A stretch of 45,192 nucleotides of DNA, taken from Candidatus Moraniibacteriota bacterium (GTDB taxonomy: Bacteria > Patescibacteriota > Minisyncoccia > Moranbacterales > GWC2-37-73). Below, piece after piece: positions 9,444-34,262 of the stretch. The notes beneath the pieces were generated by a model. It had not been told where the DNA came from. It was given only the letters and a program-made list of their open reading frames with translations, and did not search any database. A program made the translations under genes and the position numbers. The first letter of the stretch is position 1. Every line of letters begins with the position of its first letter. The stretch is from NCBI GenBank assembly GCA_036845785.1, contig DAIUDF010000004.1:1-45192 (forward strand), read 5' to 3'.

Positions 9444-10631
9444 ATGCTGCAATCAATCAAAGAGAAGAAATATATCTTCGGGGCTATTATTATTGTGCTC
9501 ATAATCGGAGGATATTATTGGTACAATAGATCAAAATCAAAAGATGTGGCTGTTCAATACAGGACAGCTAAGGTGGAACAAGGATCAATCACGTCTTCTG
9601 TTTCAGCGAGTGGGAATGTGGAAGTAGACCAGCTTTCCAATATTGATCCATCAATCAGCGGAACGGTCTATAACTTGTCAGTCAGCGTTGGCGATAAAGT
9701 TAAAAAGGGGCAACTGCTTTTTGAAATTGATAATGATGGTTTGGGAATCGAAGCTAATCGGGCCTATTCATCTTATCTTCAATCCAAGGCTTCTCTAGAA
9801 ACAGCTAAAGCCGGCAAAAAAGAAGCTAAAAACAATTATGACGATGCAAGTTCCAGCGAAGAATCTATCATGAAGAAAAAATATGAAGCAGCCAAGATAT
9901 CACTGGAAGTGGCAGAAAGAAATGTGCAGACCAGCTGGTCTTCCTATCAAGAGGCTCTTTCGGATGCTTCAGAAAGAAAAGTTGTTTCGCCGATTGACGG
10001 CACAGTCAATGAAATTAATATTGAAAACGGCGATAGTCTCAATAAATCTTCATCCAGCAATAGCAATGAAACACCGATTATTATTGGCGATCTTGGCACA
10101 ATGAAAGCTAAAGTGGAAATTAACGAAGTTGATATTGTGAGCGTGCAAATAGGACAAAACGCCAGCATGACTTTTGATGCTGTTGATGAACTTAAGGTTA
10201 CAGGCAAAGTTGAAAAAATTGATGCGCTGGGAACTCTTAACAGTGGTGTAGTTTCCTATAACGTGGTTATTTCTTTTGATTCACTGGACCCCAGAATCAA
10301 ACCGCAAATGAGTGTTTCTGCTGAAATAATCACCGGTTCCAAAGAGGATATTTTGATTGTTTCCAACAGCGCTATTAAAGCCCAAAACGGCGAAAATTAT
10401 GTGCAAATTATGCACAATGACGTGCCGGAAAAGCGCAAAATTAAGGTCGGTATTGCTAATGATACGAATACGGAAGTTGTCAGTGGCTTAAGCGCTGGTG
10501 ACGTAGTAGTTACCCAAACCATAAACGCTAATTCAGCCAGCAATTCATCATCTTCAAGTTCTTCCAGCTCCAACAGCAACAAATCAAACAATAATGATCG
10601 GGGCGGCCCTCCAGGTATGATGGGATTCTAG
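9444..10631 (+). CDS. Efflux periplasmic adaptor subunit (MacA/HlyD family)
   Basis: TM anchor, lipoyl-like half motifs (SGTVYNLSVSVGDKVKKGQLL; SPIDGTV), helical hairpin, GLSAGDVVV C-terminus. Confidence 0.92.
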   Translation: MLQSIKEKKYIFGAIIIVLIIGGYYWYNRSKSKDVAVQYRTAKVEQGSITSSVSASGNVEVDQLSNIDPSISGTVYNLSVSVGDKVKKGQLLFEIDNDGLGIEANRAYSSYLQSKASLETAKAGKKEAKNNYDDASSSEESIMKKKYEAAKISLEVAERNVQTSWSSYQEALSDASERKVVSPIDGTVNEINIENGDSLNKSSSSNSNETPIIIGDLGTMKAKVEINEVDIVSVQIGQNASMTFDAVDELKVTGKVEKIDALGTLNSGVVSYNVVISFDSLDPRIKPQMSVSAEIITGSKEDILIVSNSAIKAQNGENYVQIMHNDVPEKRKIKVGIANDTNTEVVSGLSAGDVVVTQTINANSASNSSSSSSSSSNSNKSNNNDRGGPPGMMGF

Positions 10632-10659
10632 AAAAATTCTAAGCACTAAAGTAATATTA

Positions 10660-11340
10660 ATGATCGAGTGTAAAAATCTAACTAAAATATATAGAAATGG
10701 TGACGTAGAAACGGTGGCCCTAAACAATGTGTCTTTTGATATTGAAAAAGGCGATTTTGTTTCCATTATCGGACCATCTGGCTCAGGCAAGTCAACTCTC
10801 ATGCACATTTTGGGCGCTTTGGATACGCCGACGAGCGGAACATATTTTTTGGATGGCAAAGAGGTTTCCAAACTGAGCGATGATGATCTTTCCGAACTCA
10901 GGCGAGATAAAATCGGTTTTGTTTTTCAAGCTTTCAATTTGCTACCGCGCACGACAGTTCTCCGCAATGTTATGTTGCCGCTTTTATATTCCAATAAAAC
11001 CGAAGAAGAAAGAGTGAAAAAAGCCAAGGAATGTTTGGCTTATGCCGGCATGGAGGAAAGTAAATTTTTGAATCTTTCCAATCAGCTTTCGGGCGGGCAA
11101 ATGCAAAGAGTGGCGATTGCCCGGTCGCTTATCAACGATCCGGCAATTATTTTAGCCGATGAACCGACTGGAAACCTGGATACTAAAACTAGCCAGGTTG
11201 TTATGCAAGCTTTTCAGGAGCTCAATAGTAAGGGGCACACTATTATTTTAATTACGCATGAAATGGATATCGCTAATTATGCCAAGCGCGTGATTCATAT
11301 TCGAGACGGAATGATTGAAAAAGACGAAATCAAAAAATAA
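10660..11340 (+). CDS. ABC transporter ATP-binding protein (MacB/LolD type)
   Basis: GPSGSGKST Walker [25 protein letters not shown]. Confidence 0.96.
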
Positions 11341-11347
11341 ATTAAAT

Positions 11348-11433
11348 CCCCACTAATTTACTAATCAATTACGAATATACTAATGTACGAAAAAATGATT
11401 AGTATATTAGTAAAAAATTAGTAATTAGTTGGA
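11348..11433. repeat. ACTAAT/ACGAAT-type inverted oligomer repeat
   Basis: CCCCACTAATTTACTAATC shared with 16058-16076. Right half is runs of ATTAGT. Confidence 0.8.
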
Positions 11434-15679: not shown

Positions 15680-16051
15680 ATGCAAAATGTACAAGATGTT
15701 TTCAACAAAATTCGGGAAATGAAGAAGGAGCAAAAGGACATCCGGGATATGTATAAGGATGCCTTGGTGCAAGCGGATAAATATGAAGAAATTGTGGAAG
15801 AAATCAAAGTTCTCCGCGAAAAGAAAAAAGAAATTGAAGCCAGGATTCAGGCTGATTTGGGTCGCAGTTGGGAAAAATTTGAAGATTTGAAGTTACAAGT
15901 TGATGCTGAAAAAGAAATGTTGAATGACATTGCCATTTCAACTCTTATGAAAGGGGAAACTGTTGTTGCTAAAGATGAATTTGATAATGTCTATGAGCCG
16001 GTTTGGAAAGTTAATTTCAAGAAAACGAATTTAGGGCAAACGACAGAATAA
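15680..16051 (+). CDS. Coiled-coil hypothetical protein
   Basis: 123-aa charged helical ORF with host-like codon use. Confidence 0.8.
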   Translation: MQNVQDVFNKIREMKKEQKDIRDMYKDALVQADKYEEIVEEIKVLREKKKEIEARIQADLGRSWEKFEDLKLQVDAEKEMLNDIAISTLMKGETVVAKDEFDNVYEPVWKVNFKKTNLGQTTE

Positions 16052-16057
16052 TTTTGT

Positions 16058-16142
16058 CCCCACTAATTTACTAATCCTGTACCAATATACTAATTTTCAG
16101 AGTTTATTTGTATATTAGTAAGAGATTTGTATTTTAGTCGGA
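16058..16142. repeat. ACTAAT-type inverted oligomer repeat
   Basis: Left end matches 11348. Right end TATTAGTAAGAGATT..TTTAGTCGG matches 26462-26490. Confidence 0.8.
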
Positions 16143-16153
16143 ACATGTTAGAT

Positions 16154-17203
16154 ATGAATAATAATTTTTGGCAAGAATTATCGAAAAAGAAAAAGCCGTT
16201 TTTTGCGTTGGCACCAATGCATGACGTCACTGACATCGCCACTCGGCAGATGCTGGTTAAATATGGAAAGCCGGACGTTTTGTTCACAGAATTTGTGGCC
16301 TCAGATGGCCTCATGGACAAGAAAGGCAGGCAAGTTCTCCTGAAAACTTTGCGTTTTTTTGAAAATGAACATCCGATTGTGGCGCAATTTTTCGGAGCCA
16401 AACCGGAGAACTTTCGTGAGTGTGCTAAAATTGCCAGAGAGCTGGGTTTTGACGGAATTGACATCAATATGGGTTGTCCAGACAAAAGCGTTGTTGAGCA
16501 GGGAGCGGGTGCAGCGCTGATCAAAAACCCGAAACGAGCCAGAGAAATCATCCAGGCGACCAAAGAGGGTGCTGGCGATTTGCCTGTTTCAATCAAAACG
16601 CGCATTGGTTTTAGCCAAAATGAAATCGAAACATGGCTCCCGGAAATTTTAGCCGAAAAACCGGCAGCGATTACGATTCACGGCCGGACTAAAAAACAAG
16701 CCTTTGTTGGGGGTGCTGATTGGGATGTCATCAAAAGGGCCGCAGAAATTGCCAAGGGCTCAGGCGTTGTTATTATTGGCAATGGTGATGTTAAAAGCAT
16801 AAAAGACGGAATTTTGAAGGCCAGAAAAGCTAAAGTGCAGGGCGTTATGGCCGGGCGTGCCATTTTGGGCAATCCCTGGTTTTTCAATCGCAAGAAAAAA
16901 ATCGAAAAAATTCCGCTTAAAGAAAGGCTGGAAGCGATGATTGAACACGCTCGAATTTTCGAAAAAGAATTGAAGGGTGTTCACCCTGTTAAATCCCCGC
17001 GAAGCGGGGTCGCCAAAGGCGAATTTAACAGGGTAAAGGGTTATGACGTGATCAAGAAGCATTATGCCACTTATGCCAGAGGATTTGATGGCGCCAAAGA
17101 ACTGCGCGGGGAGCTTATGCAAACCAAAAACGCCAAGCAGGCGGAAAGAGTTGTCGAGAAATTTTTAAAAGAATATAATGAAAAAGTAATTTCTAAAAAA
17201 TAA
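16154..17203 (+). CDS. tRNA-dihydrouridine synthase (Dus family), carrying an in-frame palindromic insert
   Basis: LAPMHDVTD, DINMGCP, ITIHGRT, IGNGDV, VMAGRAILGNPW. Start may be 16145 or 16154. Confidence 0.93.
   Translation: MNNNFWQELSKKKKPFFALAPMHDVTDIATRQMLVKYGKPDVLFTEFVASDGLMDKKGRQVLLKTLRFFENEHPIVAQFFGAKPENFRECAKIARELGFDGIDINMGCPDKSVVEQGAGAALIKNPKRAREIIQATKEGAGDLPVSIKTRIGFSQNEIETWLPEILAEKPAAITIHGRTKKQAFVGGADWDVIKRAAEIAKGSGVVIIGNGDVKSIKDGILKARKAKVQGVMAGRAILGNPWFFNRKKKIEKIPLKERLEAMIEHARIFEKELKGVHPVKSPRSGVAKGEFNRVKGYDVIKKHYATYARGFDGAKELRGELMQTKNAKQAERVVEKFLKEYNEKVISKK
16981..17037. repeat. In-frame palindromic element in dus
   Basis: ACCCTGTTAAAT/ATTTAACAGGGT stem (16983-17034) with two inner hairpins. 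Encodes HPVKSPRSGVAKGEFNRVK. Confidence 0.85.
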
Positions 17204-23474: not shown

Positions 23475-23588
23475 GTATACAAACGAATTTACAAATCTAT
23501 TACTAATAAGAGGATATGCAAAATTTGAACGCAGGGAATATTTTTTTGGTTTATTTGTATATTTGTATATAATTTGTAATTTTGTAGG
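23475..23588. repeat. ACAAAT/ACTAAT-type inverted oligomer repeat
   Basis: TACAAACGAATTTACAAAT..TACTAAT mirrored by ATTTGTATATTTGTAT..ATTTGTAATTTTGTAGG. Confidence 0.7.
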
Positions 23589-25631: not shown

Positions 25632-26384
25632 ATGGAAATTTCTTTATCACCAGAATCACTTTTTCATATTGGCAGTTTTCCGATTACCAATACGTTGGCA
25701 ATGACTTTTTTGCTTAGTTTGCTGATTATTGTAGTTGCTTTGGTTTTGCGCAAACGTCTGAAACTTATTCCCAAGGGGTTTCAAAATGTTTTTGAGTATG
25801 TGATCGAAGCCTTGCTGGACCTTATAGACAGTGTGACTCAAAACAAGGAACAATCGAAAAAATTCTTTCCGATTGTGGTTACGATTTTTCTTTTTGTCAT
25901 CCTGTCTAATTGGATTGAATTGATTCCGGGCTTGGGAACAATCGGAATTAATGAAAATTTGCACGGCAAAACAGTGCTGGTTCCCTTTATCCGTAGCGCT
26001 TCAGCCGATTTGAATGTTACTTTGGCCATTGCTCTCATTTCCGTTTTCACAATTCAGTTTATGGGCATTGCTGCAATCGGAATTTCCAAATATGCCGGAA
26101 AATTTTTTGTTAGTCCATTTCATAAGCCGTATTTTATCGGAACTTTCGTGGGAGCTCTGGAACTCATCAGCGAATGCGCCAAGATTGTTTCTTTCTCCTT
26201 CCGTCTTTTTGGAAATATTTTTGCCGGGGAAGTGCTTTTGATTGTAATGCTGAATCTGGTTCCATTTTTGGTGCCACTCCCATTTTTATTTTTGGAATTG
26301 TTTGTCGGATTTATTCAAGCGTTGGTTTTTGCTATGTTGACATTGGTGTTTTTGAAAATGGCCGTGACTGAATCTAGCCACTAG
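25632..26384 (+). CDS. atpB: ATP synthase Fo subunit a
   Basis: SADLNVTLAIAL, SFSFRLFGNIFAGE, FIQALVFAML. Confidence 0.96.
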   Translation: MEISLSPESLFHIGSFPITNTLAMTFLLSLLIIVVALVLRKRLKLIPKGFQNVFEYVIEALLDLIDSVTQNKEQSKKFFPIVVTIFLFVILSNWIELIPGLGTIGINENLHGKTVLVPFIRSASADLNVTLAIALISVFTIQFMGIAAIGISKYAGKFFVSPFHKPYFIGTFVGALELISECAKIVSFSFRLFGNIFAGEVLLIVMLNLVPFLVPLPFLFLELFVGFIQALVFAMLTLVFLKMAVTESSH

Positions 26385-26402
26385 TGCTTAATATAAATAA
26401 TA

Positions 26403-26492
26403 ACCTACTAAAATACGAATTTTATACTAATATACTAATTAAATTTAAAAGCACATTAGTATATTAGTAAGAGATTAGTAATTTAGTCGGGT
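26403..26492. repeat. ACTAAT-type inverted oligomer repeat
   Basis: TACTAAAATACGAAT..TACTAATATACTAAT / ATTAGTATATTAGTA..ATTAGTAATTTAGT. Confidence 0.8.
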
Positions 26493-26550: not shown

Positions 26551-26796
<246 letters not shown>

Positions 26797-26855
26797 GCAG
26801 TTTGTAGTTCATGGTTCGTAGTTTGTAGACTGCGGACCAAAAACTGCGAATTGGA

Positions 26856-27050
26856 ATTTTCTCCACTTTTCTTTTACACAAAAGAAAAGTGGAAGAAAAG
26901 AAAACTTCGCACCCAGATGAAGTGCTGTGGAAAATTCTAAGCTCACTCGCTAAAATTTACACTTCGCTTCGCTACGTTTCAAAATTTTTTAACGCTCACT
27001 CGCTTGAATTTTCTTACGCACTTCATGGGGTGCGGAAAATACGAAAATTC
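26856..27050. repeat. Dispersed MITE-like repeat, copy 1 (3'-truncated)
   Basis: TCCACTTTTCTTTT-acac-AAAAGAAAAGTGGA hairpin and following ~70 nt nearly identical to 31441-31530. Confidence 0.8.
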
Positions 27051-27080
27051 TCTCTAATAATTGATAATTACAAAACCATT

Positions 27081-27566
27081 ATGGAATTACTTACAAATCT
27101 AGGTATTAATGGAAAATTGCTCTTGGCACAAATCGTGAATTTTTTGGTGCTACTTTTTGTACTCAAAAAATTTGCCTATGGTCCAGTGCTGAAACTTTTG
27201 GAAAAACGTACTAAAAAAATCGAAAAAGGACTCAAAGATGCTGAAGAAGCACAAAAGAAATTGGTTGAAATTACGGAAAAGGAAAAAGAAGTTTTGGCCA
27301 AGGCCAGAAAACAAGCGCAAGAAATCGTCGCAAATGCGGAAAAAGTAGCACTCAAGAATAAGGAAGAAATTGTTGTTGCCGCCAAGCAGCAGTCAGAAAA
27401 AATCCTTGTTGATGCGGAAAAGAAAATTGAACTCGAAAAAAACAAGATGCTTTTGGAAGTTAAGACAGAAATTGGAGGACTCGTGGCTGTGGCAACAGAA
27501 AAAATTATTGGTGAAAAAATGGATAGTCAAAAAGATAAAGAATTAATTGAAAGAGCAATAAAATAA
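27081..27566 (+). CDS. atpF: ATP synthase Fo subunit b
   Basis: MELLTNLGINGKLLLAQIVNFLVLLFVLKKFAYGPVLKLLEKR. The longer ORF-track start (26889) lies inside the repeat. Confidence 0.95.
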   Translation: MELLTNLGINGKLLLAQIVNFLVLLFVLKKFAYGPVLKLLEKRTKKIEKGLKDAEEAQKKLVEITEKEKEVLAKARKQAQEIVANAEKVALKNKEEIVVAAKQQSEKILVDAEKKIELEKNKMLLEVKTEIGGLVAVATEKIIGEKMDSQKDKELIERAIK

Positions 27567-27573
27567 TTGGCAT

Positions 27574-27975
27574 ATGAAAGTATCTCCAGCGCAATATGCG
27601 CGAACATTATTAGAGCTGACAGAGAATAAGACTGAGAAAGAAATCAGCGCGGTGGTTTTGCGTTTTGCCGAGGTTATCAAAAGAGACGGGCAACTTAAAA
27701 ATGCCAAGATTATTACGGAAAAATTTTCTGATTTATATAATGAAAAACATGGAATTGTCGAGGCAGAAGTGATTACAAAAAGTAAAATAGATGACAAAGA
27801 ATTGAAGGAAGTCGAAAATTATATCAGAAAAAAATATGCAGCGAAAGAAGTGGTGGTGAAAAATGTTTTGGATGAAAGCATCCAAGGCGGAATGATTGTG
27901 AGAGTCGGGGATGAAGTGCTGGACGGATCGATAAGCGGGCAGCTGAGGAAGTTGAGGAAAGAATTGGTGAGATAA
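27574..27975 (+). CDS. atpH: ATP synthase F1 subunit delta (short form)
   Basis: QYARTL...VLDESIQGGMIVRVGDEVLDGSISGQL. Confidence 0.92.
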   Translation: MKVSPAQYARTLLELTENKTEKEISAVVLRFAEVIKRDGQLKNAKIITEKFSDLYNEKHGIVEAEVITKSKIDDKELKEVENYIRKKYAAKEVVVKNVLDESIQGGMIVRVGDEVLDGSISGQLRKLRKELVR

Positions 27976-27983
27976 AAGAATTT

Positions 27984-28009
27984 GTCATTCCCGCGAAAGC
28001 GGGAATCCA
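27984..28009. repeat. REP/dRS3-like palindrome
   Basis: GTCATTCCCGCGAAAGCGGGAATCCA fits ATTCCC-N8-GGGAAT. Confidence 0.75.
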
Positions 28010-28010
28010 G

Positions 28011-28306
28011 AAAGTTTTTTGAAATTCGTATACTAACTTTTCTTTCTAGAAAGAAAAGTTACAAAAGAAAGTCGCGCCAGGATGAAGATACTGTGGCAAG
28101 CGCTTCGTTCTTCGCTAAATTTTCTATTTCGGGCTCAGAGAAAATTTTTAACGCTCATCACTCGCGCTTTGTCCGCCTCGGCGAGCCTCGAGCGAGACGG
28201 GCCTACGTACTTCATATGGCGCCCTTGAAATGCGGAATGCAAATTCAAAAATGCAATTCAGGGTTTAATTGATTAAAAATTAAGCACTGATAGTACTTTT
28301 GAAAAA
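28011..28306. repeat. Dispersed MITE-like repeat, copy 2
   Basis: Starts AAAGTTTTTTGAAATT and ends CTGATAGTACTTTTGAAAAA. A 35-nt block at 28236-28270 is identical to 31642-31676. Confidence 0.8.
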
Positions 28307-28361
28307 ACTGCCGGCTTATTTAGATAGTTAAGCACGGCAGTCAATTAAAAAATTGGATGAT

Positions 28362-28664
28362 TTAGGATTTATAAAACTGTACAGCTATCCATACGTCAGT
28401 ATAAAATCCTGATGGAAATTTTGTTTTGTTGGTTAAGTTATATTCACCAAATAGTACGGCAGTAGCTTTTTCAAGAGAGAATTTGCTTAATTGTCTTTTT
28501 TGTATTATTTCAATTGCTTTTTTCTGGACAATTTCTTGATTAGGCTTTATATCTACCCACTCTCCTTTAATGTTAGAATTATCCCATTCACAGTCTTCAA
28601 TGGAAAAATTTAACAGTTTTGGTTTTCCAACAGGTTTTCCTTGAGGATTAATAAGTATTTTCAT
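28362..28664 (-). CDS. Hypothetical protein, antisense cargo inside the atp operon
   Basis: 100 aa, SD AAAGGAG, own promoter TTGACA(28753-28748)-N17-TATACT(28730-28725). Confidence 0.8.
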   Translation of the reverse strand: MKILINPQGKPVGKPKLLNFSIEDCEWDNSNIKGEWVDIKPNQEIVQKKAIEIIQKRQLSKFSLEKATAVLFGEYNLTNKTKFPSGFYTDVWIAVQFYKS

Positions 28665-28855
28665 AATATCTCCTTTTGTTAAAGAAATTTTTGTTTAATA
28701 ATTGTGATAAATTATCAACTTAATAGTATATTTTAGAATAAACAAAATGTCAAATATATATGCGGTTAAATTATTAATAAGTTCACGAGTTCACGAGTTT
28801 TTAAAATAACGCGTTAACCCGTTAACACTTTAATAAAGAATAATATAATAATATT

Positions 28856-30406
28856 ATGAACAAAGATTTTATCGTAGAACAACTTAAAAAACAAATCGAA
28901 AACTTCAAGACTGAAGTTGCGACGGAAAAAGTCGGCAAAGTGGTGGAGGTGGGCGATGGCGTGGCTCGCATTTCGGGACTCTCCGACATTATGGCTTCAG
29001 AAATGGTAGAATTTCCAAATGGTGAAATTGGAGTGGCGCTTAACTTGGAAGAAGATCGCGTGGGCGCAATGGTTTTGGGAAATTTTACGGAAATCAAGGA
29101 AGGCGACGAAGTGAAGGCGACTGGTAAAATTCTGTCTATTCCAGTGTCAGATTCCATGATTGGGAGAGTTATTAATCCTTTGGGTAGTCCAGTGGATAGC
29201 AAAGGCGAATTCAAAACGGATAAATATTATCCAGTGGAAAAAATTGCGCCAGGTGTTATTACCAGAAAAGGCGTGCATGAGCCGGTGCAAACCGGCATTA
29301 AAGCGATCGATGCTTTGATTCCAATTGGACGCGGACAACGCGAACTTATTATTGGTGACCGCCAGACTGGCAAGACTGCGATTGCTATCGACACTATCAT
29401 CAATCAGAAACCCGCCTCGACTCGCGGAGATGACCGCTCGTCGACGCGAGGCGGGGGGCAGAAACCCATGAAATGCATTTATGTAGCAGTCGGACAAAAG
29501 GAATCCAAGATTGCTCGCATCGTGGGCGAACTCGAAAAAAATGGCGCGATGGAATATACCACTGTGATTGTGGCGGGTGCTTCGGACAGTGCCGCGCTTT
29601 CCTACATTGCTCCGTATTCCGGTTGCGCGTTGGGCGAATATTTTATGGACAAAGGTGAAGACGTGCTCATAATTTTCGATGATCTTTCTCGTCATGCTTG
29701 GGCCTATCGTCAGATTTCTTTGATTTTGAAACGCCCACCAGGACGCGAAGCTTATCCGGGCGATGTTTTCTATCTGCACTCAAGACTTCTGGAAAGAAGC
29801 GCCAAGCTTAATGAAGATTTTGGCGGCGGTTCGATGACGGCTCTGCCAATCATTGAAACGCAAGCCGGCGACGTGTCCGCCTACATTCCAACCAACGTGA
29901 TTTCCATTACGGACGGACAAATTTTCTTGGAATCAGATTTATTTTATAAAGGTGTGCGACCAGCGCTCAACGTTGGTATTTCCGTTTCGCGTGTCGGTTC
30001 TAGCGCGCAGATTAAGGCGATGAAAAAAGTAGCCGGCAAACTTAAATTGGACTTGGCGCAGTTCCGCGAACTCGAAGCTTTTGCGCAGTTCGGATCAGAT
30101 TTGGATGAAAAAACCAAGGCACAAATCGAACGTGGCAGAAGGACAGTAGAAATTTTGAAACAAGGACAGTATGAACCAATGACAGTGGAACACCAAGTAG
30201 CTATTCTCTATGCCTTGGCCAATGGATTCCTGGATGATGTAGAAGTTGAAAAAGTCAGGGAATGGGAAAATGATTTCCATAAATTCATGGACGCGCAAGC
30301 CAAGGATGTTATCAAAGCAATTGGCGAGAAAAAAGAATTGAACGATGAAGTTGTGGCAGGATTGGAAAAAGCAATTAAAGAATTTAAAGAAGTTTATATG
30401 GAATAA
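28856..30406 (+). CDS. atpA: ATP synthase F1 subunit alpha, with 15-aa palindrome-encoded insert
   Basis: [42 protein letters not shown]. Confidence 0.98.
29411..29455. repeat. In-frame palindromic element in atpA
   Basis: CCCGCCTCG...CGAGGCGGG, 45 nt, encodes [15 protein letters not shown] between NQK and [11 protein letters not shown]. Confidence 0.8.
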
Positions 30407-30412
30407 AATGTT

Positions 30413-31423
30413 ATGGCAAGTTCAAAAGACATTCGACGTCGAATAAAATCTATAAATAGCACCAAAAAAATAACTCGCGCTATGGAGATGGTTAGCGCTG
30501 CTAAAATGAGAAAAGCTGTTGCCAGCGTTATTGCGATTCGTCCTTATGCTCACAGCGCTTGGAGCGTACTGACTAATTTGGCCAGAGCTTATGAATCGCA
30601 TGGGCGCGGACTTTTGGAAATCAGGGAAGTCAAAAGCGTTTTGATTGTGGTGGTGACATCAAATCGCGGACTTTGCGGATCATTCAACACTCAAATTGCC
30701 AAAAAAATAAAAGATGAAATTTTGCATCCGGAAAAATTGAAAATCAACCGCATTAACGGTAAAAAATTGGATTCGAAAATTAAAGATGAAGACCTCCGGA
30801 TTGATTTTATTGTAATTGGGAAAAAAGGCGAGGGGATTGTGCGCAAACTTCACCCTGTTAAATCCGCCGAAGGCGGTCCTGCTTCGCAGGAATTTAACAG
30901 GGTAAAGCAGGAGATTATTGCTTCTTTTGCGGATGGCGGTCAATTTGTTTCAGCCAATGATATCAAACCGCTTTCCAAAATTGTGATTGATGATTATTTG
31001 AATAAAAAATATGACAAAGTAGTGGCGATTTATACCGACTATCTCTCAACGATTGTGCAGAAAACCCGTATTCGCCAGATTTTGCCGATTTCTAAAATTG
31101 ATATCGAAAAACAGATTGCTGAAATGGATGTGATTGCCAAAGAATATGGGCTTTCTGAGTCAGTAGTGGAATATAAAGTGGAACCGAGTCCGCGGGAAGT
31201 TTTGGAATTTATTATTCCGCGCCTGATTGAAATGCAGCTTTTCCATGCGATTTTGGAATCGAAAGCTTCGGAAGAAAGTGCGCGCATGATGGCGATGAGA
31301 AATGCGACGGATGCGGCGGGAGAAATGTCGGAAGATTTGACGTTGGCTTACAATCAGATCAGGCAGGGAAAAATTACGCAGGAAATCGCGGAGATCAGTG
31401 CTGGCCGCGCTGCTCTGGAATAA
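30413..31423 (+). CDS. atpG: ATP synthase F1 subunit gamma, with palindrome-encoded insert
   Basis: KKITRAMEMVSAAKMRKA, SNRGLCGSFN, RMMAMRNATD, RQGKITQEIAEI. Confidence 0.97.
   Translation: MASSKDIRRRIKSINSTKKITRAMEMVSAAKMRKAVASVIAIRPYAHSAWSVLTNLARAYESHGRGLLEIREVKSVLIVVVTSNRGLCGSFNTQIAKKIKDEILHPEKLKINRINGKKLDSKIKDEDLRIDFIVIGKKGEGIVRKLHPVKSAEGGPASQEFNRVKQEIIASFADGGQFVSANDIKPLSKIVIDDYLNKKYDKVVAIYTDYLSTIVQKTRIRQILPISKIDIEKQIAEMDVIAKEYGLSESVVEYKVEPSPREVLEFIIPRLIEMQLFHAILESKASEESARMMAMRNATDAAGEMSEDLTLAYNQIRQGKITQEIAEISAGRAALE
30850..30907. repeat. In-frame palindromic element in atpG (same family as the dus insert)
   Basis: ACCCTGTTAAAT/ATTTAACAGGGT (30852-30903). Encodes HPVKSAEGGPASQEFNRVK. 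Confidence 0.85.
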
Positions 31424-31707
31424 AAAGTTTTTTGAAATTAATTCTCCACTTTTCTTTTACGCAAAAGAAAAGTGGAAGAAAAGAAAACTTCGCACGCGGA
31501 TGAATTTCTGTGGCAAATTCTAAGCTCGTTCGCTAAAAAATCTAACTCGTCCCGCCAAGGCGGGACTCAGACAGAGATTTTTCTTAACGCTCATTCGCTT
31601 GAATTTGCTGACGAAATTCATAGTGTGCGGGAAATGCAAGAAATGCAAATTCAAAAATGCAATTCAGGGTTTAATTAAAATTAAATTCTGATAGTACTTT
31701 TGAAAAA
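31424..31707. repeat. Dispersed MITE-like repeat, copy 3
   Basis: Same left and right ends as 28011-28306. 5' half matches 26856-27050. Confidence 0.8.
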
Positions 31708-31760
31708 TAAAAAAAGTAGCCCATCCGGAAGATTCGGACAGGCCCTAGTTTAATATTTGA

Positions 31761-32024
31761 TTATTCTTCGTATTTTTTAAAATATTGAAATACTAAAATA
31801 ATCGAAAAAAATACGCCAAGTGTGTCAGGTGCAAGTATCCACCATGACTTTATTGTCACGGCATAGCATGCTCTGACCACATAAACACTTAGTGGAAGAG
31901 CGGTCATTAGAAAACTTAAACCACTCTTTCTTTCGCGATGGTTTTTTATGATTTGGCTGGGTAGCGCAACCAAGACCATCGAAACTGCTAAAATTAATGT
32001 AAAGAAACCAAATACATTTTCCAT
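31761..32024 (-). CDS. PQ-loop/SemiSWEET-like small transporter, antisense cargo inside the atp operon
   Basis: Three TMs, LPSQIIKNHRERKSGLS resembles the PQ-loop motif. SD GGAGG. Promoter TTGACT(32099-32094)-N17-TATAAT(32076-32071). Confidence 0.75.
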   Translation of the reverse strand: MENVFGFFTLILAVSMVLVALPSQIIKNHRERKSGLSFLMTALPLSVYVVRACYAVTIKSWWILAPDTLGVFFSIILVFQYFKKYEE

Positions 32025-32288
32025 TTTTATTCCTCCCGAAGAATATTTTGTATTTTTTTGCTAACTTTTAATTATACTCCAAAATAACGAAAAAGTCAAG
32101 CCCGCAAAGTTGCTTTGCAACCACGTGCCAAGGCCTTGGATTCTGATTAGTGGATTTTACCTAAAATAAGCCTAAAAAGTTATAAAGTTCATAAAGTTTA
32201 TAAAGTAAAATTCGTAAACTTTTAAATTTTGTAATTAATTGATAATTAGCTAACAAGCTAAAGAAGCTAGTGAAGCTAATGAAGCTAA

Positions 32289-33662
<1,374 letters not shown>

Positions 33663-33674
33663 TTTTTTAATTTT

Positions 33675-34115
33675 ATGGGTTTACAAATAAATTTCAAAAT
33701 AATAACTCCGGAAAAGGTTGTTTATGAAAATGAAGTTGATCAAGCAACATTGCCGGTAGCCAATGGAGAAGTGACAATTCTGCCGAACCACAGAAGCTAT
33801 ATTGCTTCTCTTAAGCCTGGAGAGATCAGGCTGAAAATGGGAGAAAAGGAAAAACTGTTGGCGACTTCCGGAGGCTTTATTGAATTTAATAAGAATACGC
33901 TTATAGTGTTGGCTGACACAGCAGAACGTGCTTCTGAAATTGATCTTAAGCGAGCCGAAGAAACCGCTAGGCAAAGAGCGGAAGAACTCAAAAAAGAAAA
34001 AATCACCATGAGTGAAATGGAATATGCCAAAGTGGCAGCGGCGATTGAAAAAGAATGGGCGCGGGTCAGAGTGGCCAAAAAGCATCACAGTAAACATGGG
34101 ATAAAAATAGATTAA
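33675..34115 (+). CDS. atpC: ATP synthase F1 subunit epsilon
   Basis: FKIITPEK, GEVTILPNH, SGGFIE, VLADTAERASEID. Confidence 0.95.
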   Translation: MGLQINFKIITPEKVVYENEVDQATLPVANGEVTILPNHRSYIASLKPGEIRLKMGEKEKLLATSGGFIEFNKNTLIVLADTAERASEIDLKRAEETARQRAEELKKEKITMSEMEYAKVAAAIEKEWARVRVAKKHHSKHGIKID

Positions 34116-34122
34116 TATAATT

Positions 34123-34250
34123 AATGACAAATGACTAATTTCCAATGTCAATTCAATGTCAAAAACCAAATTTCAAATAAATAATTAAAGTATTTTTTGT
34201 CATTTGGATTTAGGATTTTATTTGTCATTAGTCATTAGAAATTTGACATT
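34123..34250. repeat. AATGAC/AATGTC-type inverted oligomer repeat
   Basis: AATGACAAATGACTAAT..AATGTCAA mirrored by TTGTCATTAGTCATT..TTGACATT. Confidence 0.75.
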
Positions 34251-34262
34251 AAAATTATTCTT

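Follow-up and report, generated by a model that had tools for sequence, protein, structure and literature searches.

In this work we describe a set of small antisense gene cassettes, and the folded repeat that accompanies them, in the ATP synthase (atp) operon of a Candidatus Moraniibacteriota bacterium, a member of the Patescibacteria (candidate phyla radiation, CPR) known from anaerobic-digester metagenomes. The window, by which we mean the whole 45,192-nucleotide stretch analysed (contig DAIUDF010000004.1, low in GC and with nearly all genes on the + strand), holds two such cassettes, in the atpH-atpA and atpG-atpD spacers. Comparison with related loci (L numbers below) reveals fixed positions within essential operons, those of ATP synthase and dprA-topA, that hold interchangeable, independently expressed antisense genes of ORFan type. 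This looks like an undescribed kind of gene-cassette hot spot, marked by a folded repeat together with a short conserved hairpin, and we found neither module described in Rfam 15 or in full-text literature searches that covered CPR intergenic repeats, Patescibacteria integrons and Parcubacteria RNA motifs. As an explanation we favour modular cassette hot spots whose contents are exchanged homologously through shared modules and conserved flanks, a reading to which we give a probability of roughly 45%. Patescibacteria have very small genomes and their gain and loss of accessory genes are poorly understood; whichever route of turnover applies, these spacers offer a defined place to seek strain-specific, possibly newly arisen, genes in Patescibacteria.

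The analysis followed an original prediction, made from the sequence alone, that a repeat occurs twice in the operon with an antisense, self-promoted ORFan gene behind each copy, and that this repeat either serves as a capture or landing site for single-gene cassettes or moves together with its gene as one unit. The observation was confirmed and the interpretation is partly supported. Positions 28011-28306 (copy B) and 31424-31707 (copy C) align end to end with 67.8% identity over 307 nt (blastn); both start with AAAGTTTTTTGAAATT, both finish with CTGATAGTACTTTTGAAAAA, and an identical 35-nt block, AATGCAAATTCAAAAATGCAATTCAGGGTTTAATT, is found in each (28236-28270 and 31642-31676). The 20-mer CTGATAGTACTTTTGAAAAA, the sequence ATGCAATTCAGGGTTTAATT and the 35-nt block occur exactly twice each in the 45 kb, against an expectation of 0.01-0.02. 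Behind the right ends, as predicted, lie the stop codons of two minus-strand open reading frames (ORFs), 55 nt away for ORF1 and 53 nt for ORF2, and both genes have near-consensus sigma70 promoters (11 of 12 consensus matches each) and Shine-Dalgarno sequences (SDs) ahead of their ATGs (AAGGAG and GGGAGG, respectively). For both genes an intrinsic terminator lies in the interval that separates stop codon and repeat, a feature that the prediction had not included. A third copy (A) lies in the atpE-atpF spacer and, as had been stated, is without the right-end block and without cargo. The locus is not an assembly artefact, as at least 14 contigs (JGI, ENA and Logan samples) match it with 100% identity.

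A structured core and a short hairpin

What had been taken for a single repeat consists of two modules, a structured core of ~190 nt and an imperfect hairpin of ~70 nt, which we call M4. The core is built from a perfect hairpin (P1, CCACTTTTCTTTT..AAAAGAAAAGTGG), an A-rich linker, and an irregular hairpin of ~140 nt (P2) with conserved internal loops (CTGTGG, TCGCTAAA and TTAACGCTCA) and a variable tip that often contains a nested GC-rich mini-hairpin. The core is much more strongly folded than shuffled controls (z = -9.0 for copy C and -7.0 for copy A), and compensatory changes distinguish the three window copies in both P1 (CCAC/GTGG vs TAAC/GTTA) and P2 (AAATTC/GAATTT vs AAGCGC/GCGCTT). A DNA pattern of three invariant blocks identified 20 true sites in 13 species-representative metagenome-assembled genomes (MAGs), along with one chance coding match; the MAGs are labelled Moranbacteria, Parcubacteria, Paceibacteria or Patescibacteria, with four labelled Bdellovibrionales. 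A covariance model (R1), built from 17 copies of subtype B only, detected 27 distinct copies in the window and the pattern-scan loci, and further copies in loci fetched later. Within the alignment, which is fitted to the structure model, pairing extends to 95.6% of cells, and in 19 of 31 pairs both partners have changed (127 cells), values reached by 0 of 500 shuffles, while slid controls gave 39-52% paired; a plain MAFFT alignment shows the same covariation (e.g. AAAAC/GTTTT vs GCGC/GCGC). The core represents a structured repeat family that is new, widely distributed and strongly covarying, and it can be used as a marker. Rfam 15 contains no match to it: the one match in the window at gathering score is a tRNA, and an E-value scan of 26700-32300 returned chance-level hits only (best 28.8 bits vs a gathering score of 66). 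Stem pairs of the 27 true copies comprise 780 Watson-Crick, 29 G-U and 15 A-C pairs, which is only a mild hint that the + strand may be the one that folds.

Core copies tend to lie just downstream of genes. Among 26 copies, the upstream gene is on the same strand in ~18 and the downstream gene on the opposite strand in ~19 (by crude ORF calls), and convergent junctions account for 10 of 22 core-bearing junctions against a background of 20% (p = 0.007, counting ORFs of 75 aa or more). Given this position and its usual orientation, the core, and M4 with it, would be transcribed together with the upstream gene or host operon. No convincing promoter precedes P1 in the window copies; a TATAAT-like box (15-nt spacer) is conserved in one core subtype, and we judged it doubtful. 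Terminal inverted repeats are missing from the element, no target duplication recurs consistently around core-only copies, and within about 2 kb of any core copy neither a transposase nor a recombinase was found, the neighbours being ordinary housekeeping genes; the autonomous version envisaged in the original prediction was likewise not encountered in these flanks. When viral contigs were scanned for the patterns of the core, of M4 and of M5 (a promoter module described below), each gave 0 matches, which offers no hint that phages are the source. The core alone is a dispersed non-coding repeat, resembling miniature inverted-repeat transposable elements (MITEs) and repetitive extragenic palindromic (REP) elements, and is independent of cargo.

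In 15 of 26 copies one frame runs through the core without a stop, and for this reason the core gives rise to an over-long atpF and a phantom 68-aa ORF in copy C (31472-31678); atpF is called as 225 aa (26889-27566), and its actual start is probably 27082. The possibility that the core encodes a small protein, making the repeat a gene family, draws on this stop-free frame (the other two frames hold 1-7 stops) and on the presence of the 68-aa product in JGI gene calls. There is, however, no conserved start codon or SD, and 11 of the 26 copies do contain stop codons. Moreover, indels in the apical region put the 3' half into different frames in different subtypes (..FQNFLTLIT.. vs ..KFFNAHH..), and paired double substitutions keep the helices while altering the peptide; on these last two grounds the coding hypothesis was rejected, and we consider it very improbable indeed. 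The core is better regarded as a source of mis-annotation, and probably also of chimeric assemblies.

In the window M4 is found in copies B and C only, where it follows a tail of AATGC-type words and is directly abutted by the A-run and stem of the antisense gene's terminator. It comprises a left arm (TCAAAAATGCAATTCAGRRTTT), a variable apex of about 10 to 100 nt and a right arm (AAATTYTGATAGTACTTTTGAAAA). Searching public metagenomes with an exact 22-nt left-arm pattern returned 23 loci, 13 of them true and 10 chance matches in coding sequence, and together with earlier loci 14 distinct M4 sites are available. When aligned, 90.7% of their arm cells are paired around a conserved internal mismatch (ATGCAAT vs ATAGTAC), and variation consists chiefly of changes from G-U to A-U or G-C. 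All 14 sites are located in atp-operon spacers (atpB-E, atpH-A, atpG-D) or between dprA and topA; behind 12 of them comes an antisense ORF of 54-144 aa with its own promoter and terminator, and the other two stand in tandem with a second cassette. Two further M4s at atpB-E (L048, L040) are degenerate or empty, and no M4 was found in 19 other core-bearing loci. The feature linked to cargo is therefore the ~70-nt M4 with its frame, and not the ~200-nt core. Accordingly, the proposed association of the repeat with antisense ORFs holds for copies with M4, while most core copies have neither the right-end module nor consistent cargo; in the same way, it is the M4 module that marks sites of antisense-gene exchange.

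The two units of the window show how these modules are assembled. In unit B, a left-end motif, AGTTTTTTGAAATT (28013-28026, + strand, from a motif-class scan), leads into core copy B (28025-28225, + strand), which belongs to subtype B, scores 138 bits with R1, has compensatory changes relative to A and C, and contains a nested GC-rich hairpin at about 28168-28205. The AATGC-word tail and M4 follow (28226-28310, + strand; nhmmer with the M4 profile, 28239-28310, E = 5e-14), with left arm TCAAAAATGCAATTCAGGG, a variable apex and right arm CTGATAGTACTTTTGAAAAA. On the minus strand, the ORF1 terminator as read from the sequence (28309-28345; CTGCCG...CGGCAG and a T-run) reaches into the M4 right arm and has homologues in L031, L032 and L035; ORF1 itself (28362-28664, from the ORF list), the cargo of this unit, encodes a soluble protein of 100 aa; and its 5' untranslated region (5'UTR; 28665-28753, minus strand) holds a stem-loop, the SD and, by promoter scan, the promoter TTGACA-17-TATACT (28753-28725), all of which can be aligned to the frame of other cassettes. 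The unit is closed by a right-end module, M6 (28766-28855, + strand; promoter scan and comparison with L031), which contains AAGTTCACGAGTTCACGAG, the motif AGTTTTTAAAATA and AACGCGTTAACCCGTTAAC; its outward promoter (TTAACA-16-TATAAT) stops 7 nt short of the atpA ATG. In this stretch (28822-28858) no SD lies between the -10 box and the ATG, which, with the short distance, suggests that the atpA mRNA may be leaderless.

Unit C starts directly after the atpG stop codon with its left-end motif AAAGTTTTTTGAAATT (31424-31439, + strand; alignment and motif scan), which is also found after the atpG stop in L047 and, interrupted, in L017. Core copy C (31438-31631, + strand; subtype A/C, R1 96 bits) has a nested GC hairpin, GTCCCGCCAAGGCGGGAC, and is followed by the AATGC-word tail and M4 (31632-31712, + strand; nhmmer 31645-31708, E = 2.5e-15). 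The ORF2 terminator identified by terminator scan (31718-31744, minus strand) is a 10 bp stem with 6 GC pairs and then ACTTTTTTTA, and ORF2 (31761-32024, minus strand) encodes 87 aa. Upstream of ORF2, module M5 (32025-32180, minus strand, promoter scan) comprises the SD, the 5'UTR, the promoter TTGACT-17-TATAAT (32099-32071), a GC hairpin and ATTCTGATTAGTGGATTTTACCTAAAATAAGCC, a motif common to L031, L032, L035 and L047 that resembles the M4 right arm (p about 0.03 by shuffles). A second right-end module, M6' (32181-32291, + strand), with stutters of the words ATAAAGTT and GCTAA-AAGCTA, extends to the atpD ATG and recurs before topA in L035 and before atpD in L047 and L040. Copy A (26855-27036, + strand, R1 128 bits) has P1, a long P2, and a short AATRC tail to about 27060. 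The 13-nt left-end motif class occurs in the 45 kb only at 28013, 28292, 28796, 31426 and 31693, and on the + strand only, with a pattern that was set post hoc, once the sites were known.

Several core copies outside the window have neighbours of interest in their own right. In L012 (1525-1929) the antisense gene facing a core-only copy encodes a PemK/MazF-type toxin (E = 1e-10), and in L015 (1263-1820) the gene in this position encodes a 23S-rRNA-intervening-sequence protein (31.4 bits vs a Pfam cut-off of 33.8); both are typical accessory genes. L029 (2082-2733) has a core and an antisense 109-aa ORF between HlyD-like and ABC ATPase genes, and the equivalent junction in the window (10631-10660) is a 28-bp spacer. 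In L064 (1-1720, 4045-6096) recR runs at its 3' end into the very core found after atpG in L047, L065 and L066, a join that is either a chimeric assembly at the repeat or a genuine recombination between core copies; it was treated as a possible chimera and excluded as evidence of transposition. The same locus has another antisense island behind a core, in the order cysS, core, antisense 90-aa ORF, dnaB.

Interchangeable cargo and shared frames

The comparison of spacers in related genomes bore out the expectation that different antisense cargo would be found behind the same right-end module at the same junction. At atpG-atpD, where the window has core, M4 and ORF2 (87 aa), L017 has core, M4, a 65-aa membrane ORF, a second M4 and an 89-aa ORF; L047 has core, M4, 67 aa, M4 and 144 aa; L040 has 36/54-aa peptides, M4 and 70 aa; and L052 has M4 and 64 aa. 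The atpH-atpA junction holds core, M4 and ORF1 in the window, core, M4 and an 80-aa membrane ORF in L040, and a 71-aa ORF in L061, and is empty in L006, L049 and L052. At atpB-atpE there is M4 alone in L048 and L040, and M4 with 89 aa in L052. Finally, dprA-topA holds cores, M4 and an ORF1 homologue in L031 and L032, and cores, M4 and an unrelated 69-aa ORF in L035 and L046. The flanking genes dprA and topA are 95-98% identical between L031 and L035, and between L032 and L035 the left frame is 97% and the start of topA 100% identical; since the ORFs in between are unrelated, cargo differs even between close strains.

The cargo genes are mostly without assignable family: none matched Pfam, PHROG or PADLOC families, ORF1 and all others included, with the exception of a weak PQ-loop signal for ORF2. 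Among 5.8 billion clustered proteins ORF1 has two homologues, with two more by profile in 1.8 billion representatives, giving a family of five members that are all antisense to their neighbours at conserved junctions: atpH-atpA in the window, dprA-topA in L031 and L032, atpG-atpD in L061 (49% identity), and, in L063 (43% identity), immediately ahead of atpD, on a contig of 1.2 kb that stops short of the next gene upstream. AlphaFold2 gave a pLDDT (predicted local distance difference test) of 47 for ORF1 modelled with two homologues. ORF2 resembles a PQ-loop/SemiSWEET-like membrane protein with three transmembrane segments, on the basis of Pfam matches below cut-off (PQ-loop, E = 6e-4; MtN3, E = 0.019) and of a homologue, P0007, annotated with PF04193 (PQ-loop); its relatives in L056-58 and L060 occur in other contexts without any repeat, and in L059 a core lies downstream of such a relative on the same strand. 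The description of the cargo as ORFans therefore does not strictly hold, given the four relatives of ORF1 and the weak PQ-loop likeness of ORF2. For the 144-aa cargo of L047, no homologue was found among the 5.8 billion proteins. Seven of 19 cargos are small hydrophobic proteins of 54-125 aa (ORF2, L017_65, L047_67, L052b_64, L040_54, L040_80 and the N-terminus of L021_125), and ORF1 and several others are soluble.

These proteins bear on a reading in which the fold is itself a functional RNA: the + strand transcript of core and M4 would be a cis-antisense regulator or antitoxin of the convergent small gene, or else an insulator or processing element shielding the atp mRNA from convergent transcription. 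Small hydrophobic cargos and a PemK/MazF toxin as one neighbour would suit such a role, as would the convergent layout with its shared terminator region, the conservation of structure, covariation and internal-loop sequences across distant lineages, the excess of G-U over A-C pairs on the + strand, and the G-U to A-U or G-C changes of M4. Yet the RNA sequence is conserved while the cargos are unrelated, and complementarity would be limited to terminator read-through; many cargos are soluble, as noted for ORF1; no gene faces copy A or roughly a quarter of the cores; and the window copies lack a promoter of their own, with only one subtype offering a doubtful one. We hold a regulatory RNA to be improbable as the explanation of these loci.

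The sequences that surround the ORFs are shared between cassettes. M5, upstream of ORF2, matches the sequence ahead of the L031 homologue of ORF1 with 84% identity over 118 nt, and M6, before atpA, is 87.5% identical to the module just upstream of topA in L031. The promoter TTGACTTTTYGCTTATTTTGGAGTATAAT, the 5' stem-loop and the SD are common to the 69-aa, 144-aa, ORF1-homologue and ORF2 cargos, and the variable part of these framed cassettes is essentially the ORF itself. The window unit with ORF1 and the L032 unit are homologous over ~725 nt (71% identity), spanning core, M4, terminator, ORF and promoter, and relative to L031 the homology reaches the last base ahead of the downstream start codon. 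Repeat and gene are thus found as one unit at both atpH-A and dprA-topA, in partial support of the original prediction; at other sites the cargo also exists without the repeat.

In this anatomy each cassette is framed on one side by M4 with its adjoining terminator and on the other by the promoter/5'UTR module M5 with an outward-promoter module, M6 or M6', enclosing a single small ORF that is antisense to the host operon and has a promoter and a terminator of its own. The core is a folded non-coding repeat, placed just downstream of genes and usually in the orientation of the upstream gene. Framed cassettes occupy spacers between conserved, co-transcribed housekeeping genes (atpB-E, atpH-A, atpG-D, dprA-topA), and the outward promoter at the right end, as identified for atpA, would keep the downstream essential gene expressed, such that insertion would not silence it. 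Turnover may then proceed through DNA uptake and homologous recombination, either in the flanking genes or in the shared modules of 70-150 bp. Crossovers in flanking genes would swap the whole spacer, whereas those in modules would exchange the ORFs of different frames or carry an ORF with its frame to a further junction bearing the modules.

One recombination tract of this kind was observed. In a sister strain (L006, L008) the segment corresponding to window 27941-30425, from the 3' end of atpH through atpA to the first bases of atpG, is swapped for a tract that is 95% identical in atpA, with flanks that are 99.9% identical. The sister tract has a 106-bp atpH-atpA spacer with neither repeat B nor ORF1, and a different palindromic element of ~135 bp between atpA and atpG. 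This event is a homologous replacement with crossovers in conserved genes, atpH and atpG. Breakpoints in the mosaic cassettes fall in the terminator, in the 5'UTR and at the M5/M6 border, a spread that fits recombination through modules.

A number of observations weigh against homologous exchange as the full account. The sister-strain replacement is the only homologous event observed, and it exchanged a whole spacer and not a single cassette. In about half of cassettes a full M4 on one side is matched by an M4-like remnant on the other, and the 13-nt motif is directly repeated at 28013, 28292 and 28796; both look more like site-specific insertion. ORF1-like genes are present at the atp junctions of L061 and L063 without core or M4, and the modules are therefore not required. 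The restriction of M4 to atp and dprA-topA spacers could partly reflect shared spacer ancestry, given the exact 22-nt pattern used to find it; the ratio of G-U to A-C pairs in core stems, at only 29:15, points no more than mildly to one strand or to RNA rather than DNA; and the scheme does not account for the source of new cargo ORFs. These findings also count in part against the original interpretation: most cores have no consistent cargo, and ORF1- or ORF2-like genes occur free of the repeat in L061, L063, L056-58 and L060.

The signs of site-specific insertion raise an integron-like scheme, in which M4 would be a folded site analogous to attC for a recombinase encoded elsewhere, and the cassette, consisting of terminator, ORF, promoter and one M4, would insert at M4 or at TTTTGAAA-type sites, form arrays of one or two, and hop between junctions. 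M4 has imperfect arms with a conserved mismatch and an apex that tolerates insertions of 10 to 100 nt, and it stands at the 3' end of every cargo ORF. Tandem arrays of M4-cassette-M4-cassette are present in L017, L047 and L040; the M4 at atpB-E is empty in L048 and L040 and filled in L052, where homology picks up again immediately past the cassette and the far junction bears a remnant resembling the M4 left arm. Furthermore, a right-arm-like motif, TTCTGATTAGTGGATTTT, ends the last cassette in unit C of the window and in L031, L032 and L047 (p = 0.003-0.03), the cargo is rich in ORFans, as in integrons, and the 13-nt direct repeats lie at unit and cassette boundaries and nowhere else in the 45 kb. 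Against this, the motif was defined post hoc, remnants at the far boundary are weak or missing in half of cases (nhmmer found nothing usable as a partial M4 there, and local alignment against shuffles gave weak to moderate support), and breakpoints fall at several places, including the terminator, the 5'UTR and the M5/M6 border, where a single point would be expected. In addition, no integrase or other recombinase was found in any examined flank, M4 does not have the AAC...GTT triplets that define attC R boxes, and the cassettes bring their own promoters and terminators. We therefore consider it unlikely that M4 acts as an attC-like site. The broader proposal, of a new cassette system of Patescibacteria in which an unlinked recombinase moves ORFan-rich cassettes at M4 or TTTTGAAA and the core is simply a non-coding cassette, is equally doubtful.

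Absence of the modules from L061 and L063 is also relevant to a scheme in which mobility belongs to the repeat, with the genes as mere bystanders. Here core and M4, resembling a MITE or a palindrome-associated transposable element (PATE) and mobilised in trans, would target the T-rich tail TTTTGAAA beyond intrinsic terminators, with the antisense genes having arrived by another route. The ORF1 relatives of L061 and L063 have the same TTTTTTGAAAATAAAAAAGCC-terminator tail without core or M4, and in L040 an uninterrupted AGTTTTTTGAAAAA stands directly before the terminator of the 54-aa cargo, again without either module; in the window, core and M4 are flanked by AGTTTTTTGAAATT and AGTACTTTTGAAAAA, which have TTTTGAAA in common in the manner of a target duplication. 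The dispersal of the core alone, its enrichment at convergent junctions and its preference for the orientation of the upstream gene, as in strand-specific transposons of single-stranded DNA, would also be explained. However, core-only copies have no consistent flanking duplication, solitary M4 sites have no copy of the left motif, P1 and M4 are dissimilar, unlike the paired end hairpins of elements of the IS200/IS605 type, and no transposase was found in the surveyed surroundings of core copies. Nor does this scheme account for the shared promoter and right-end modules or for whole-unit homology between atpH-A and dprA-topA, and we regard it as decidedly unlikely. Homologous exchange through modules and flanks is retained as the preferred explanation.

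The atp operon and other repeats of the window

The host operon begins with an atpI-like gene (start 25308), followed by atpB (25632-26384), atpE (26569-26796), repeat copy A, atpF (27082-27566), atpH (27574-27975), copy B with minus-strand ORF1, atpA (28856-30406), atpG (30413-31423), copy C with minus-strand ORF2, atpD (32292-33662) and atpC (33675-34115). A different arrangement was observed in L052 (138-10210, reverse strand), where atpB, M4, a cargo gene, atpE and atpF precede an atpI-like gene and then a complete atp operon, the second on this contig, representing a partial duplication of F0 genes.

Further repeat families are found in and around these genes. GC-rich palindromes lie in frame within the essential genes atpA (29411-29458) and atpG (30851-30904), adding 16 aa to AtpA and 18 aa to AtpG (HPVKSAEGGPASQEFNRV); each inserted palindrome folds at about -32 kcal/mol, the insertions are missing from the L017 and L040 orthologues, and a related word occurs at 16980-17007. 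As in-frame GC-rich palindromes in atpA and atpG, they are similar to the Rickettsia palindromic elements. An AT-rich palindromic element of ~135 bp (TGACAAATGACAAAT...ATTTGTCATTAGTCA) is situated at 34116-34259, between atpC and a carbonic anhydrase gene, and an 84%-identical copy is found between atpA and atpG in the sister strain only (L006 7618-7753). A family of inverted ACTAAT/ATTAGT words (11340-11429, 16050-16141, 23538-23588 and 26395-26490) has every copy just upstream of a + strand gene, atpE among them.

Beside unit B, a GC-rich mini-hairpin (GTCATTCCCGCGAAAGCGGGAATCCAG; 27985-28010, fold -14.8 kcal/mol) belongs to a separate family of small palindromic repeats, and its word also adjoins cores in L017, L029 and L031. 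Members of this family, ~26 nt in length, are nested within the window cores at about 28168-28205 and 31546-31563 and occur in the M4 apex of L052 and upstream of cores in L011, L019, L023 and L029; the family inserts into spacers, the core tip and the M4 apex. Lastly, three spacers (26800-26835, 28780-28835 and 32185-32290) consist of short words imperfectly repeated (GTTTGTAGTT..CGTAGTTTGTAG; AAGTTCACGAGTTCACGAG; AACGCGTTAACCCGTTAAC; ATAAAGTT three times; GCTAA-AAGCTA four times), and the same stutter modules are found upstream of unrelated genes in other species.

Relation to known systems

The core shares several properties with REP/BIME, ERIC, Correia (CREE) and BOX/RUP elements, being multi-copy, 170-210 nt long, non-coding and strongly folded, and lying in post-gene and intra-operon spacers in the orientation of the upstream gene, with nested smaller palindromes and no transposase nearby. 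It differs in having neither terminal inverted repeats nor a consistent target duplication, in sequence blocks that are conserved from Moranbacteria to Paceibacteria, in its modular 3' extension by M4, which is tied to antisense cassettes, and in belonging to no Rfam or otherwise described family. With regard to MITEs, at least 27 core copies are dispersed in 13 MAGs with no autonomous copy within about 2 kb of any of them, and direct copies of AGT..TTTTGAAA flank core plus M4 but no consistent duplication flanks core-only copies. Compared with IS200/IS605-derived PATEs, P1 and M4 are unrelated in sequence, and the flanks contain no TnpA or TnpB. Canonical attC, dif/Xer and IS200/IS605 end architectures were rejected by direct sequence reading.

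Integrons, including clusters of attC sites that lack an integrase (CALIN), resemble the M4 cassettes in their short arrays of single-ORF, ORFan-rich cassettes, in the imperfect hairpin with conserved arms and variable apex at the 3' end of the ORF, and in a cassette content that varies at one site between related genomes. The attC site is defined by the boxes R'' (RYYYAAC) and R' (GTTRRRY), with conserved AAC and GTT triplets. By contrast, the M4 consensus (..TTCAAAAATGCAATTCAG...CTGATAGTACTTTTGAA..) does not have AAC...GTT at its arm ends on either strand, and no IntI, attI or Pc is present in the flanks of M4 or core loci. The cassettes described here also each have their own promoter, 5'UTR and terminator, are located inside essential operons in antisense orientation, and show mosaic breakpoints. 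Should their turnover nevertheless be driven by a recombinase, they would represent a new cassette-capture system.

Mobile insertion cassettes (MICs) of the Bacillus cereus group are MITEs with a passenger gene, and the units found here are similarly non-autonomous, about 0.6-1 kb in size, with one passenger ORF, conserved ends, and a presence at unrelated loci. They differ from MICs in that they have no inverted terminal repeats from a known insertion sequence and no cognate transposase, and in that one end is a folded repeat and the other a set of promoter modules. Type I toxin-antitoxin loci with convergent genes overlapping at their 3' ends, such as txpA/RatA, bsrG/SR4 and fst RNAI/RNAII, encode small hydrophobic toxins, usually under 60 aa. 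The likeness lies in a small, often hydrophobic ORF that faces a structured, RNA-like element across a shared terminator, but here it is the ORFs that vary and the structured element that is conserved, soluble proteins are frequent among the cargos, no RNA promoter is seen in the window copies, and the element also occurs without a facing ORF.

A conceptual parallel for the preferred reading is provided by the minimal mobile elements (MMEs) of Neisseria, in which different gene cassettes occupy the space between the same conserved genes and are exchanged by transformation and homologous recombination. References for the concept are Saunders & Snyder 2002, as cited in PMC1538595, and Snyder et al. 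2004 (PMC406496). Likewise, our loci have variable content between fixed housekeeping neighbours, exemplified by five contents at atpG-D and by an ORF1 homologue or a 69-aa ORF at dprA-topA; they have no mobility genes, and one strain-level replacement had its crossovers in the flanking atpH and atpG. They differ from MMEs in the portable boundary modules (core/M4, M5, M6), in the presence of the same cargo family at three junctions, and in cargo that is always antisense and self-expressed. If turnover is indeed driven by homology, these cassettes would extend the MME idea to a distant phylum and add to it portable modules that let a gene hop between junctions.

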